A DNA stretch of 64,000 nucleotides from Vermamoeba vermiformis (GCA_045837725.1 JBEWZL010000121.1:124001-188000), one strand, 5' to 3'; shown: positions 252 through 58,200, counted from the first letter of the stretch. The notes: generated from the sequence alone by a model not told the origin. Numbers and translations: made by a program.

Positions 252-2933
252 ATGGAGAAGAATGGGCTTGAAGTAGACCACAACGTGCCGCACTCCATCT
301 GGCTTTACCTTCCAACAGAACTGTGGTTTCAAATATTTCAATGGTTAAGAGCTACTCGATATATAGCATTAATAGGCGCATTATCGAAAGGCTTCAGAGA
401 GTTCATGATAGAGTATTTTAAATCCGTTGGTCCGTGGATGAACAAAAATATGAACGTTGCGATTGTTGGTGCTCCTGCAGTTGGTAAGTTGATTAAACAT
501 TAATAATATAATAATATCTTTAGTATTATTTGAGTTAAAATTTATTTTTGCGAGCAATTTTAGATCAGCTGATATTTTGCGAATTTTCAAAGAATGCCAA
601 TTGTACCTTCTAACGCTTATTATAGGAAAAACCACTATGCTTGCTCACCTTTTTCTTCAATCACGCCTAAATAACATCGAGCATCGATTCGCCAATTTCA
701 TGGCAAAAAACAATAAGCTGCCCGTAACATCGCATTATAATTCGTTCCTTAATGCTCGCAATGCTAAACATCCTATAACATATACGCAACATATTCGACC
801 TTTTTACTTCGACACTAGTCTGCACCACTTTACCTTTTTTGATAGTCCCGGATGTGCACGACGATTAATCACTGCGTATCGTATTTGCTCTCAAGTAAGC
901 AATATATTACCACATTATATGATTTAAATGCTTATTTGTACGCAATTATAGGTTAATACCGCTATTTTGGTGCTTCAACGCAAACAAGAGCTCGATCTGG
1001 ACTGGTTAATCAGTGGTGTAACTGCAGTATGGACGTCATTAACGCACTCGCACTTTATTATTGCCGTCAATTATAGCCACGGTATTTTTACTCAACCTAG
1101 TAAGTACTCGCACGAAAAAAAGGATCGTACTAGTACCTTAAAAATTCATAATTTATTTTTCTTTGCTTTGAGCTTAAAAATAGTGTCATTAATATAAGGA
1201 GCGCTAATACGGCCTATATTTAATATTGGAAGGATTATTAATGATAATTTGCTTTAGATTGGGAAGCAGATCAAAAACTACTTTACGAGAAATTGGTTAA
1301 GGCAGTGCCTGCAAAGTTGCTTTCTAATATTAAACTGATTCCGATCAACGCACTTGAAGGGTTTAATGTTTACTCGCCTCATGCCGGCATCGATGACTCG
1401 AACATCTGGTAAGTCGGTTAATCAGCTTCAAAATTCAATTTTATACAGAAATTATTATTTAAGTCCTATACGTCTTAATTTGTGATATATAAATATAGGT
1501 ATAACGGCCCTACATTATATCGAGCATTACATGCTATATGGGAGAAGTTGGAATATCCTGCCGAACGGATCGAGAAGCCGTTTTCGATGACAGTCCTTCG
1601 CCCTATGAAAGTTGGTGGAGTAGGACCCATTATTGCCGGAGCAGTTAATAGTAAGGAGATTAGAATCATATTTGACGTTTAAGCCAAATCTAAAAAATAT
1701 TTCCTTTTTAGGCGGATGTCTCAAACCCGGAATGAAACTTCGCGTTTGCTGCTCTGGTTTCCCAGCGACTCCATTAGTAGTTCATTCTATCCAGCATAAT
1801 GGCAGAAATATGGACGAAGCTAAACCCTCCGATTATATTGGAATTTCATTCACATCCGCTTCAAGAACTCAAATAACCGGCTGGAACATACTCGAAAAAG
1901 TCAAATATGGCATGATAGTGGCCGATAATAATAATCCTCCGAAGAGAGTCAAGTCGTTTACGGCGGCTATTGCTATCGTAAGTAGTCACAAGAATTTCGT
2001 ACAAAAAAATATCGAATTTTATTCTCCGGAGCGTTTTTCGGCATTACAATCACGAAGTTAAATTAGCACTATGAACGGTCTATAATAATTAGTCTTTTCA
2101 AATATTTATTCCAAAAGTTTTGGTACCGCGTACCTACACTACTTTTGATGACAAAAAATCTACTGTAATTGCAAGTTGAGTACTCGCAAGTAGTTGAATG
2201 GGTAGTAGGTGCCCTTGTTAGCAAGTAGTGACCCGAACACGACGTTGCAGCAGGTCTCGGGCACGACCACACTAACAAGAATGCACCGCTTCCCGTCCGA
2301 TCAGCGAAGTTAAGCTTGTTCAGGCCTTCTTAGTACTGGGGTAGGAGACTACCTGGGAATCGGAGGTGTTGTGCTCTTTACTTTTTTGCTTTTTGCGACC
2401 GTTCATAGTGCTTTTTATTCTAAGAACCAACGAGCGCAACATGCGATCCACATCCGCATTCCGCTGACATTTTTGTTTTGCACAGACGTCTTCTAGAGCT
2501 GGTCAGCTTCGGGAAGGGCAACAGTACAAGGCTATTTATCAAGGAAATCACATCTTTGTCGTGTTCAAAACTTTTGTTCAAGTCCTCGACAAGGATCACA
2601 AAGAGGTCACTCGAAAAAACCTTCATCCAGGTAACCCTTCATTCCGATAATTATTATTATTTAATTACTCTGTTTAATTTTATTTATTAAACTATGATTA
2701 TTTGTGCAGGCGATTCGTGCTTAGCATTGTGCATCCCGACGCAAGAGATGTGGACGTACCCCAAGACCAACAACAGAAATCAAAAGAAGGACGGACGCGA
2801 TGTAATATTGTTCACCACTCAACGCCGCATATCCGCTGTTGGTCGTATTGATGCGATAACTTTCTTTGAAGATAACGAAGTTGCTCAGCAACCGAAACAA
2901 TTTGCTCATGGAAGACAACCTGAAATAAAATAA
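252..2933 (+). CDS. F-box domain fused to a divergent eEF1A/HBS1-like translational GTPase (domains I-III), multi-exon
   Basis: N-terminal F-box-like LPTELWFQIFQWL. Spliced P-loop GAPAVG|KTT (intron 484-625), DSPG (G3), IPINALEG..WYNGPTL, KPFSMTVLRPMKVGGVG, domain II VHSIQHNGRNMDEAKPSDYIG. After intron 1978-2485, domain III reads TSSRAGQLREG...LHPGDSCL...ISAVGRI, stop 2931-2933. Confidence 0.8.
2259..2377 (+). rRNA. 5S rRNA gene (copy 1), inside intron 1978-2485 of the F-box/EF1A-like gene
   Basis: 119 nt with GGGCACGAC...GTTGTGCTC terminal helix, conserved CCCGTCCGATC, GAAGTTAAGC, TTAGTACTGG and CCTGGGAAT, followed by oligo-T Pol III terminators. Confidence 0.95.
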
Positions 2934-3645: not shown

Positions 3646-4048
3646 TTAGTACCGCTCAGGATTGAATTCGTGCAATTTTTCAGCGAGCTCCCAAAAGTCT
3701 CGGATCTGAATAATTTGCAACAGCTCTTCAAATGATACTTGACCATTGCCATCAGTATCAGCCATCTTGAATAGCTCTTCGGGGAATTTCCAGCGCGATT
3801 CTGGCGTGTTTATCTCAACACGAGATCCTTTTCCAAGGATCTTGACAAAATCGATTGCGAATCTGCGGAACTCAGCGCTGTTTAAGAAGCCTCTATTATC
3901 TCTATCATATTGTTTAAGCACCTTCTGCACTTTATTCTTATTCGTTGGCTCTTTGACTGCCGCTGACACGACTTTCATGTCGTTACCCTACATCCGCTGT
4001 CAATTTTCTTTTCATCGCTAATTACAAATTATTTTTTATACTTACCAT
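3646..4048 (-). CDS. Small EF-hand Ca2+-binding protein, probably N-myristoylated (copy A)
   Basis: ATG-only first exon 4046-4048 and intron 3988-4045 give MGNDMKVVS. EF loops DRDNRGFLNSAE and DTDGNGQVSFEE. Confidence 0.85.
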
Positions 4049-5199: not shown

Positions 5200-5601
5200 C
5201 TAATACTTCTCTGGGCAGAATTCATGCAATTTTTCAGCGAGTTCCCAAAAGTCTCGGATCTGAAGTATGCGCAACAGCTCTTCAAATGATACTTGACCAT
5301 TGCCATCAGTATCAGCCATCTTGAATAGCTCTTCAGGGAATTTCCAAGTGGACTCTGGTGTGTTTATAGCGACGTGAGCTTTTCCAAGGACCTTTACAAA
5401 ATCGATCGCGAATCTGCGAAACTCCGAACTTTTCAAGTAGCCTCTGTTGCCTTTATCGTATCGCCTGAACATTTTTCTTATCTTTCGATCATTATTTGGC
5501 TCTTCAATGGCTTCTGAAATAACTTGCATGTCGTTACCCTGCATGCGGACGCTCTTAATTTATTTCAACACTAATTAAGAACCGAAAACGATACTTACCA
5601 T
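5200..5601 (-). CDS. Small EF-hand Ca2+-binding protein, probably N-myristoylated (copy B, tandem paralogue)
   Basis: ATG-only first exon 5599-5601 gives MGNDMQVISE. EF loops DKGNRGYLKSSE and DTDGNGQVSFEE. C-terminal half nearly identical to copy A. Confidence 0.85.
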
Positions 5602-20348: not shown

Positions 20349-20421
20349 TGCGCCCGACGGGACTTGAACCCGCAGCCTCCTGGTTCGTAGCCAGACACTC
20401 TACCACTTGAGCCACGAGCGC
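20349..20421 (-). tRNA. tRNA-Arg(ACG)
   Basis: Reverse complement GCGCTCG TGGCTCAAGTGGTAGAGT GTCTGG CT-ACG-AA CCAGG AGGCT GCGGGTTCAAGTCCCGT CGGGCGC A, with a T-run downstream. Confidence 0.95.
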
Positions 20422-35833: not shown

Positions 35834-35904
35834 AGGCGCCACCAAGAATCGAACTTGGACAATCGACTCATGAGACCGAGGCTCTACCACTAAGCTATGG
35901 CGCC
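35834..35904 (-). tRNA. tRNA-Met(CAT), elongator-like
   Basis: Reverse complement GGCGCCA TAGCTTAGTGGTAGAGCC TCGGT CT-CAT-GA GTCGA TTGT CCAAGTTCGATTCTTGG TGGCGCC T, with T7 terminator. Confidence 0.88.
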
Positions 35905-36225: not shown

Positions 36226-36299
36226 TAGCCGTTCCAGGCTTCGATCCTGGGCCCTTCGACTTATGAAAACGACGCTCTAACCTTCTGAGCTAAACGGCT
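36226..36299 (-). tRNA. tRNA-Met(CAT) with initiator-like A1:U72 and AUCG T-loop, atypical anticodon stem
   Basis: Reverse complement AGCCGTT TAGCTCAGAAGGTTAGAGCG TCGTT TT-CAT-AA GTCGA AGGGC CCAGG ATCGAAG CCTGG AACGGCT A, with T5 terminator. Confidence 0.82.
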
Positions 36300-55226: not shown

Positions 55227-58200
55227 ATGTCTGGAGATTATTCATCAAAGTCAGAACAGGCGTGGGCCTCGAGCAAAGAGGACATTTATATGAAAAAGCC
55301 CGAGCCTGTTGATCATATAATAGAAGAGTTTGAAAAGAGACGAAATTTAAAACGCAGACGAGAAGCGGAAGAGGAAGAAGAGACTAGTAAGCTCCTATGC
55401 AATTGATTTTATGATGCTTTAATCCACATATTATTTTGAATATAACGGACGCTAAATCGCAATTATTCGTTCGAGATCTAACGTATTTGTAAAGGACGAA
55501 AGCGAGCCAGGATCGAAGAGGAACGCAGCGCCTTCTTCTCCAAGAAAGGTACGATCATTATAAGTATAGATAATTACTAATAGTATGCCTAGGCTATTCG
55601 TTGAAACCTCCAACCGGATCGTGCTTGCACGTAACGTCAAAGAACGGATCGCGCGTCTACGTTGAAATTGCCGATACTGATAAAGAGAATGACAACGAAA
55701 ATAACGCAAAATCAATATGGATGACATCAGGACAAGTGCTTGGTGTTTCAATGCAAGAACTAAGAAAGAGAATAGACGAAGAGGTAAGCTGACCCTGTTA
55801 CGAAACGCTGGATCTGAGCCTGGTCGTTCGGTTTGTGGAAGTAGTGACCCGAACTCTGAGTTGCGGAGCGTCTCGGGCACGACCACACTAACAAGAATGC
55901 ACCGCTTCCCGTCCGATCAGCGAAGTTAAGCTTGTTCAGGCCTTCTTAGTACTGGGGTAGGAGACTACCTGGGAATCGGAGGTGTTGTGCTCTTCTCTTT
56001 TTGCTTTTTGCGACCTTCATAGTGCTTTTTATTCTAAGAGCCAACGTGTGCAACATGCGATCCACATCCGCGTCTGATCTGAGCTTGTCCAATAATAATT
56101 CTTAATTAATTTTTTAGGACAAATTCGAATATTTTGCGCTGAAGGAGAAAGAAGAGCAAAAATTGCTGAAAGAGGCACAAAAGAAACTCGAACAAAGCGA
56201 GGTCGATCCTAATGCACCTCGTGTTCGCGAATCCGAGTTGTGGGTCGACAAGTTCTCTCCCAAACATTTCATGGAACTGCTGAGCGATGAAGTACGTACT
56301 TGTTGCACGAGAGATCTTATTCTATACAGTAACTAACTGATATGACATTAAGAAAACTAATCGCTCCGTCTTAACTTGGTTGAAAGAGTGGGATCCATAC
56401 GTGTTCAACAAACCCTTCGTCAAGCCCTCTACTGGCTCGAGATACACCGCTGGCACAGGTACGAATCAATCAGTCCCAAATGAGCGAGCTCTAACGCGTT
56501 GTCTAGGTGAGGATGGTGGTGCTGTCGAGGCTGATAAGAAGTCACGTCCGTTGAAGAAAGTCATTTTGATCTCTGGTCCTCCTGGCATCGGCAAGACCAC
56601 ATTGGCTCATGTAGTCGCTCGTCACGCTGGCTACGAGCCTATTGAATTCAATGCTAGGTACGAGCTATAAGCCCATATCCAATTAGATACTTATTGACAC
56701 GTGTCATAGTGATGATCGTACAGCGGCTTCGTTCATTCCGAAAGTCATGGACGTCATTGACACACAAACTAGCTTTTCAAAGTCGAACAAGCCTCGTTGT
56801 TTGATTATTGATGAAATTGACGGTGTTGCTGGTGGCGAGAAAGGATCGATCGAATCACTAGTCAAGATTATTGATGAAGTTGTTGACCCCGCAAAAGCGA
56901 GCAAAAAGGTAAGCTATAAATGCAATATCTGATCGTGAGACTAATGCTCGTGCAAATAGAACTATCGTGCACCCAAGGTTCGTCGACCAATCATCTGCAT
57001 TTGCAATGACTTGTACGCACCTGCCTTGAAGCCATTAGTCGAGCGAGCACTCTTGTTCAGATTAGAACCTCCTTCCGTCCAATCTCTCGTCACTCGTCTT
57101 GCATTCATTTGCAAGAAAGAGAATGTTCAGGCTGACTCGCGAACATTGCACGCACTTTGTGAATTGAGCAACAACGACATCAGAGCTTGTTTGAACACAC
57201 TTCAGGTACGTGCTAATAGGCATTATAATATCATATTAACCAGTACTGCAGTTCTTGAGCAAAAAGAAAGAAAAGTCGGTGACAGGCAGCGTTCTTATCT
57301 CGTCAACTTTCGGTCAAAAAGACATTTTAATGAACGTGTTTGACATTTGGCGCGCTGTCTTTTTGAATCAAGAAAAGAGCTCGGCACTCAAATCACTCTT
57401 ACAAGAAGAATTGCGAAACCAACGAAAGAACGAGAAAGGTACGTGGGACATTTTTGACACGCTTTAGAGTCTCTGTATTAACCGTTTCTATAGAGGCTAT
57501 TGGTGCTCCTGTTGCCAAGCCCAAGATCCAGCTCAGCGATTTTGAACGGATCTACAATATGACGGTCAGCAGCGGTGAGCCAGATATTATCATTGATGGT
57601 TGTTTTGAGAACTATTTGGACGTACGGTACTCGGATCACATGATGCAAAAGGTACGTTGAACTAGCCCTTGTAGTGGTTGGCCTCGCGCTAATGCTTCAT
57701 GAAAGACCGTGCACACCATTGACATGATGGAGTTCTATTCTATGATGCAAAAATCTTCGCGCGAAGAAATGTTTTTCAATTTGGAACAGTACACGCCCAT
57801 CGTACCTGTCGCGACGAACATGAACTGTTCTGTGGCACATTTGACCAATAGAATCAACTTCCCGAAGAGCAATCAGCAAGCAAAGTACGCGCAACAAACG
57901 ACAGAAAATATTTTGAAGTCGTTGTTGGACGGCACTAATGCCTTGACACGTCTATTTTTGACACGTGACAACTTGACACGTGACTTCATCTCGGACTTCT
58001 TACGCATAATTTCACCTCATAAGATCCGTCCTGTAAGTACTGCTTCCGATATATATTGCACAAGTAGGTCTCACACCGCGATCCAGGTCTCGGAACATTT
58101 GCTCGAGCCCGAAGAAAAAGAAACGATTCAAAAGTTAGTCAATGTTTATTTGAGCTATGGCTTGACGTTCAAAGAAGAAAAAATCAATTTGGGCCACGAA

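Follow-up and report, generated by a model that had tools for sequence, protein, structure and literature searches.

Single 5S rRNA genes scattered through the genome have been described in Neurospora crassa, Schizosaccharomyces pombe and Acanthamoeba castellanii (PMC1635290), and tRNA-5S dicistronic genes with 1–3 bp between the tRNA and the 5S in Yarrowia and Trichomonascus (PMC13130702). In C. elegans 44% of the tRNA genes are intronic, which is the chance level, and 56% of these are in sense (PMC4999229). An antisense MIR in intron 1 of Polr3e represents a single conserved mammalian SINE (PMC5358760). In a literature search limited largely to open-access listings and abstracts, we met no account of 5S genes lying as a set, in sense orientation, inside introns; the available part of PMC9296135 contains no passage on 5S rRNA, and the available parts of PMC13578239 and bioRxiv 2022.12.06.519325 contain nothing on intronic 5S. 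Scattered 5S genes are known, as are tRNA genes within introns, and in the best-studied case their orientation is close to random; the arrangement for which we met no description is that nearly all 5S copies and most sampled tRNA genes are nested co-directionally with their hosts. The parts are ordinary, and the orientation rule is unusual and testable.

A 5S rRNA gene within a predicted intron

The window analysed here, a stretch of 64,000 nucleotides of Vermamoeba vermiformis DNA (GCA_045837725.1 JBEWZL010000121.1:124001-188000), contains two 5S rRNA genes. Both are full-length matches to RF00001 (104.7 bits against a gathering score of 38, model positions 1–120). Their features, in window coordinates, are:

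252..2933, + strand: host gene of copy 1, 8 exons, 528 aa, F-box-like N-terminus and EF1A-like body (gene model, open joined frame, paralogue)
252-483, 626-894, 952-1099, 1258-1408, 1499-1650, 1712-1977, 2486-2630, 2710-2933, + strand: host-gene exons
1978..2485, + strand: intron 6, 508 nt, phase 0, GT-AG, encloses the 5S gene (gene model, paralogue)
2223..2258, + strand: upstream promoter-like element of copy 1, core AAGTAGTGAC at -36 to -27, CTC at -3 to -1
2259..2377, + strand: 5S rRNA gene copy 1, 119 nt (Rfam RF00001, 104.7 bits)
2378..2394, + strand: oligo-T tracts of copy 1, Pol III terminator-like
2378..2457, + strand: 80-nt tail common to the window copies only, with a GATC-rich motif at its end
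55784..56117, + strand: 334-nt intron of an AAA-ATPase gene, enclosing copy 2 (gene model)
55839..55874, + strand: upstream element of copy 2
55875..55993, + strand: 5S rRNA gene copy 2, identical to copy 1 (Rfam)

An earlier examination of this DNA (the sequence-only reading) had placed copy 1 in an unusually long spliceosomal intron of an F-box/EF1A-like gene. The predicted nesting is borne out by the Rfam match, by GT-AG borders (donor GTAAGT at 1978; acceptor CACAG, last base 2485), by one continuous 528-aa frame through the 8 joined exons, and by the C76 paralogue, in which seven introns each have the same phase as their host-gene counterparts. At 131 nt and without a 5S, intron 6 of this paralogue interrupts the same codon, and the exon 3′ of intron 6 aligns with the paralogue's next exon (E 3e-8). 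Since the paralogue has the same intron and aligned following exons, the downstream exons are part of the same gene and not of a separate one; since its intron 6 lacks a 5S, the intron either predates the 5S gene or arose independently of it. At 508 nt the intron is indeed exceptional, as background introns have a median of 62 nt and just 6.6% of 519 reach 250 nt or more. The matches behind the family labels are weak (F-box-like Pfam match, E 0.006, below cut-off; EF-1 alpha PDB match, E 0.28), and the EF1A resemblance is otherwise assumed. A homologue search with exon 6 and PDB searches with exons 7 and 8 gave no match. The fold of the whole intron 6 (z -2.8) is uninformative, since the 5S lies within it.

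Four of 19 sequencing runs from relatives were compared with the window, with word sharing of at most 0.18. Contigs from one of them (X2, a related strain, guessed to be RNA) contain joints at introns 1, 2, 3, 5 and 7 of the host gene; the joints listed for X2, whose contig stops at 1970, do not include 1977/2486. X2 depth was 8.3, 0 and 12.1 in bins 1601-2000, 2001-2400 and 2401-2800, respectively.

The host of copy 2, which we take to be CTF18-like, has AAA/Rad17 Pfam matches on one downstream exon, and no Pfam domain was found across the copy 2 junction. The two window copies have 36 nt upstream and 80 nt downstream in common, as had been noticed earlier, with 8 of 36 leader sites differing and 73 of 80 downstream positions identical (91%). 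The earlier statement that there is no target-site duplication is true of copy 1, where the best candidate was 5 nt; copy 2 is flanked by a 9-nt GATC-type repeat that is ambiguous as a target-site duplication. No tRNA gene was found near either window copy. Elsewhere in the window, on the - strand, a short coding region is duplicated locally (3647-3996 and 5201-5547, 75–86%, 1.55 kb apart).

Genome census and orientation of 5S genes

Searching the 43.3-Mb assembly with a 27-nt pattern gave 63 5S matches (control, 0 matches), and a 64th copy, which carries a one-base insertion, was recovered via its leader. Fifty-five of the 63 are identical to the window 5S. All copies are single, with 0 of 64 in tandem in the assembly (from which a collapsed array could be missing), and the nearest two on one contig are 18.6 kb apart, in agreement with the dispersal proposed from the window alone. 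For all copies, the cassette was masked and orientation called by a strand-symmetric gene finder that was self-trained. It placed 58 of 63 copies sense-intronic, 2 antisense and 3 intergenic (58:2, p 3e-15). After hand checks, which include the 64th copy as sense-intronic, 59 of 64 copies are sense-intronic, none is antisense and 5 are intergenic, in agreement with the earlier idea that the copies land in introns. At L054 and L077 the finder had falsely fused a Ctf4-like gene with a methyltransferase gene, and both copies were reassigned as intergenic, as was that at L037, which lies upstream of a CAF1-family start. The copy at L088 is flanked by PH and C2 exons encoded on the same strand as the 5S and is sense; that at L038 is sense in an Fe-ADH gene with a Pfam match on the upstream side only, the gene presumably continuing downstream. 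Four sense pairs (L042/L089, L056/L086, L070/L029 and L082/L084) sit in near-duplicate hosts, whose exons are 94–100% identical across contigs with introns more diverged; these hosts are possibly uncollapsed alleles, and ~55 independent introns remain when this is allowed for.

The enrichment in introns as such is moderate (60/63 against 0.77 expected, p 9e-5). By finder calls, 20 arbitrary 10-kb stretches consist of 61.7% exon, 29.4% intron and 8.9% intergenic DNA. Because introns make up 77% of the non-coding DNA in these calls, an intronic position is partly expected, but the orientation bias is not. The 5S introns are 269–1515 nt long (median 416). None of 58 5S hosts and none of 39 tRNA hosts carries the gene in its first intron, against 51 of 519 background introns that are first introns (Fisher p 0.006 for 5S), and last introns hold the 5S in 12 of 58 hosts against 52 of 519 in the background (p 0.025). 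Avoidance of first introns may be an effect of the gene finder, with short first exons missed.

Several loci have features of their own. The 5S at L054:2971-3075 has an internal deletion of ~14 nt and is likely a pseudogene; its duplicate at L077 is intact. A DEAD-box helicase C-terminal fragment (L037:3101-3256, Pfam E 0.005) lies directly behind the terminator of an intergenic 5S. At L039:1830-3344, tRNA-Asn, -Ile and -Met genes and a 5S are co-directional in one 1.5-kb intron, and L034, L068 and L078 likewise have several co-directional Pol III genes per intron.

Controls for the orientation calls

We considered whether the copies are truly intergenic, or the strand call is driven by T-rich flanks. 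In favour of such an artefact, the finder was self-trained partly on 5S loci, it made the fusions at L054 and L077, and in 10 of the 58 sense calls one flanking exon scored <10 (both scored ≥10 in the other 48). Against it, results were unchanged with reverse-complemented input and with a wider mask, and 100 random spike-ins were called symmetrically (38 plus, 33 minus, 29 intergenic). Protein domains provide further support. Among the 53 loci with both flanking exons ≥20 aa, the same Pfam family was matched on both sides of the 5S intron in 17. In 14 of these the domain is not a repeat and its two parts are collinear (among them thymidylate synthase 35-167 and 169-266; glycogen synthase 426-461 and 463-525; kinase 80-166 and 167-244). 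Adding further exons at 15 loci gave 6 more, so that Pfam domains cross 23 5S introns in total. A model-free test, which asked for a donor and an open frame 45–300 nt upstream of the 5S, was positive for 48 of 64 copies in sense against 20 of 64 in antisense (background 56/200 and 78/200).

The same pipeline was also applied to a metagenome 5S set on which the finder had not been trained (60 matches; 58 loci, one more left out). The metagenome scan gave distant 5S types only, with 24–34 differences where full length, which we take to be Acanthamoeba-type. These were called 14 sense, 10 antisense and 36 neither, and the model-free test found no asymmetry (32/49 against 30/47). An artefact is thus hardly credible as the source of the bias. 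We conclude that the predicted nesting of 5S genes, sense in introns, holds genome-wide, with the joint 1977/2486 as the splice junction predicted for the window.

tRNA, U6 and U2 genes

The sequence-only reading had missed that tRNA genes follow the same sense-nesting pattern as 5S. A sample of 58 nuclear tRNA genes was chosen independently of 5S from 63 best Rfam matches and their loci, leaving out 4 organelle-like C309 genes and duplicates. Thirty-nine were sense-intronic, 2 antisense and 17 intergenic (39:2, p 8e-10), and 18 more within 5S loci comprised 17 sense and 1 antisense. A Pfam match on one flanking exon was present for 13 of 29 tRNA introns (12 sense, 1 antisense), and a Pfam family on both sides for only 1 of 29. 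The antisense intronic tRNA gene at L183, beside a Peptidase_M24 exon, looks real. The window holds a tRNA-Arg and two tRNA-Met genes (20349-20421, 35834-35904 and 36226-36299, - strand), all called intergenic and all co-directional with the nearest upstream gene.

U6 is also a Pol III gene. The four canonical U6 genes comprised 1 sense, 1 weak antisense and 2 intergenic, and the three canonical U2 genes show no clear nesting either. Beside the canonical U6 there are three divergent U6-like genes (L224-L226) with altered 5′ stem and 3′ end; a box near -65, shared with canonical U6, is presumably DUSE-like. A divergent U2-like family of 219 nt and ~57 bits (L230-L233; G000 C202, C49), 3 of 4 called sense-intronic, differs from the three canonical U2 genes in having a TATA-like box and ending in oligo-T.

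Anatomy of the 5S unit

Positions from about -38 to -1 are conserved in the leaders of the 5S copies. The leader core, AAGTAGTGAC at -36 to -27, is present with ≤2 mismatches in 56 of 63 copies, and C stands at -1 in 62 of 63. Genome-wide the core has 48 matches, nearly all before 5S. The element near -30 is not a TATA sequence, and a leader of similar sequence occurs in reads of a more distant relative. A run of T4 or longer lies ≤15 nt from the 5S end in 63 of 63 copies. Intergenic copies have the same upstream core and T-run as intronic ones. The leader is probably a promoter-like element, to judge from its conservation and position. The terminator and the upstream element are as in a type 1 Pol III gene, and by comparison with known 5S promoters we infer that the copies are Pol III genes whose upstream element is of a non-TATA kind.

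A nine-finger C2H2 gene at C73 is a candidate TFIIIA. It is the only gene with a PF22110 match, which scores 24.1 bits, below the cut-off of 27, and TFIIIA is among the best PDB matches of its exon 1, not ahead of others; C2H2 arrays are generic. With this TFIIIA-like candidate present, the idea that TFIIIA had been lost, which would have pointed to intron processing, was rejected.

No pile-up of 5S starts was found in relatives' reads. A-tails are joined to the 5S 3′ end (window 2378) in two X17 reads, which is consistent with oligoadenylated 5S in that relative. GATC/CGGATG-rich motifs peak at -120 to -60 and at +60 to +100 over all 5S loci (21–38 per 20-nt bin against 2–16 in neighbouring bins), and more weakly around tRNAs. 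Looping-out of the unit by pairing of upstream and downstream flanks was rejected, cognate flanks pairing better in only 19 of 46 cases (mean -31.3 against -32.9 kcal/mol).

Flank sharing and route of spread

Over the 1953 pairs of 63 copies, the common flank has a median of 36 nt upstream and 15 nt downstream. The common unit is therefore ~175 bp, comprising the promoter-like leader, the 5S and the terminator. Some unrelated hosts share 55–107 nt upstream or 70–80 nt downstream, and the best upstream partner of copy 1 is L059 (58 nt), not copy 2. Among the 1953 pairs there was no case of unrelated hosts sharing sequence up to the splice sites, and no shared body was found across copies beyond ~17 nt downstream of the 5S. 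The flanks have the look of a mosaic such as copying or conversion at the DNA level would leave, and not that of a uniform mobile element.

The sequence-only reading had proposed a recently copied ~235-bp module, for which the 36 nt upstream and 80 nt downstream common to the window copies speak. A recently mobile module with defined ends is very improbable, however, because that tail is present in the window pair only, downstream sharing has a median of 15 nt, the leaders of the same pair differ at 8 of 36 sites, and the end motif is also present in the empty paralogous intron; this part of the earlier account does not survive. A SINE3 or other 5S-derived mobile element was rejected, there being no body beyond ~17 nt, no duplication at copy 1 and an intact 5S. 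Introner-like intron transposition was rejected as well, given that sharing ends short of the splice sites and that the paralogue already has the intron.

At L088:2120-3020 (G000 C300, ~562.0–562.9 kb), a ~0.9-kb insert parts the upstream element from the 5S start. It has a 10-bp duplicated target, and its antisense strand is open for ~290 codons, for which Pfam gave no match; it resembles a truncated retro-like element that inserted where a Pol III transcript would start.

Why are the nested genes in sense?

Our preferred explanation, to which we give a probability of about 0.55, is that autonomous Pol III 5S genes spread singly and are kept only if co-directional with the host, a head-on Pol III unit blocking Pol II. 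Each copy would be a self-contained Pol III 5S gene with the element at -36 to -27, an internal promoter and an oligo-T stop. Single copies would spread through copying or gene conversion at the DNA level, and the untranscribed leader and flanks of variable length would travel with them. Landings would be mostly intronic because introns are most of the free non-coding space of a compact genome, and selection would retain only copies pointing the same way as the host gene. The cause would most likely be that Pol II elongation is stopped by a much-used Pol III unit met head-on, while a co-directional unit is tolerated. The same filter would act on tRNA genes. A precedent is a reporter whose host expression was lowered by an antisense, not a sense, Pol III unit (PMC5358760). 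Head-on blocking need not be strong enough, as C. elegans tolerates antisense tRNAs (PMC4999229) and Pol II also accumulates at sense units (PMC5358760). The antisense tRNA at L183, the intergenic window tRNAs and the U6 genes, which are not clearly sense-nested, also count against a co-directional filter.

Selection at the RNA level would likewise leave the genes as Pol III units and differ only in the cause of the bias: an antisense copy would pair with abundant 5S or tRNA, leading to silencing or mis-splicing, or its T-run, read in reverse, would serve as a decoy for polyadenylation or splicing. This accounts for a strict sense bias of exactly the most abundant RNAs, and in 30 kb of long introns A-runs and AATAAA are indeed rarer than their complements (A5+ 93 against T5+ 157; AATAAA 32 against TTTATT 74). 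A roughly twofold under-representation of A-runs is too little alone for 59:0, though, and the avoidance of first introns is left unexplained; we consider such selection unlikely as the main cause. Entry of the copies via an RNA intermediate (intron or pre-mRNA), reverse-transcribed or used as a repair template in a transcribed gene, would make them sense by construction and would explain orientation, intronic site and carried flanks together. The longer flanks shared by some unrelated hosts fit this, and the retro-like insert at the L088 5S start makes reverse transcriptase activity plausible. Yet no unrelated host pair is alike up to the splice sites, the paralogue has intron 6 without the 5S, so that the whole intron did not move, and copy 1 has neither a poly(A) tail nor a target duplication, which leaves an insertion bias quite improbable.

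Sense orientation would also be required if production were coupled to the host, with 5S and tRNA partly cut from Pol II intron RNA or the Pol III unit activated by passage of Pol II. The bias is near-absolute, as this predicts, and relatives' reads (X17, X19) extend from the 5S into the upstream and downstream flanks; these reads could be unspliced pre-mRNA or DNA, however, and the library is unstranded. In C. elegans the promoter of the host has an effect on the expression of intronic tRNAs (PMC4999229), and TFIIIA-independent 5S is made from tRNA-5S fusions in yeasts (PMC13130702). The terminator on every copy, the fixed-distance upstream element on most, the same anatomy in the five intergenic copies and the existence of a TFIIIA-like gene (below the Pfam cut-off) argue the other way, and we regard host coupling as distinctly unlikely. 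Hardly more probable is its stronger form, in which 5S and much tRNA depend on host-gene transcription, being cut from introns as snoRNAs are or made by Pol III firing after co-directional Pol II passage. If true, it would wire ribosome and tRNA supply to ~55 unrelated housekeeping genes, with each unit marked by a lineage-specific non-TATA element and a GATC-rich border, and a 5S output tied to the host gene would add a new route of rRNA production.

The ~55 introns are independent natural replicates for two questions: by what means Pol II gets past a Pol III gene in heavy use, and whether selection acts on orientation. They also bear on how identical 5S copies stay uniform without an array, and they make the sharing of one gene by two RNA polymerases directly testable in this intron-rich microbial eukaryote.

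Comparison with known systems

Intron-encoded snoRNAs are nested sense-only and are cut from Pol II intron RNA, without a promoter and terminator of their own. The 5S genes resemble them as stable RNA genes nested sense-only and differ in keeping a promoter-like leader and a terminator. The presumed Acanthamoeba-type metagenome 5S genes, on which the finder was not trained, lack the sense-intron bias of the present set. For the genome of the window, the 5S type, the presumed DUSE-like box before U6 and a STAT gene suggest an amoebozoan lineage.

As in Neurospora crassa, S. pombe and Acanthamoeba, the 5S genes are non-tandem and outside the rDNA, with near-identical coding regions and unrelated flanks (PMC1635290); in the available part of that source, the scattered 5S genes are not placed in introns, unlike the present set. 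Dispersed 5S, some beside same-direction tRNA genes, are shared with Yarrowia and Trichomonascus (PMC13130702). Unlike there, a tRNA lies within ~0.6 kb at only 8 of 60 fetched loci, with gaps >70 nt and a leader for each 5S; a tRNA-5S dicistron was accordingly rejected, given these gaps and the window copies with no tRNA nearby. The Polr3e MIR exhibits the orientation-dependent Pol III/Pol II interference on which the mechanism proposed here is based (PMC5358760); it is one antisense SINE, whereas here a whole essential gene family avoids antisense. In C. elegans, too, Pol III genes lie within introns of protein genes to which they are unrelated, with 56% of the intronic tRNA genes in sense (PMC4999229), in contrast to the 59 of 64 5S copies that are sense-intronic here, with 0 antisense, and the 39:2 ratio of the tRNA genes.
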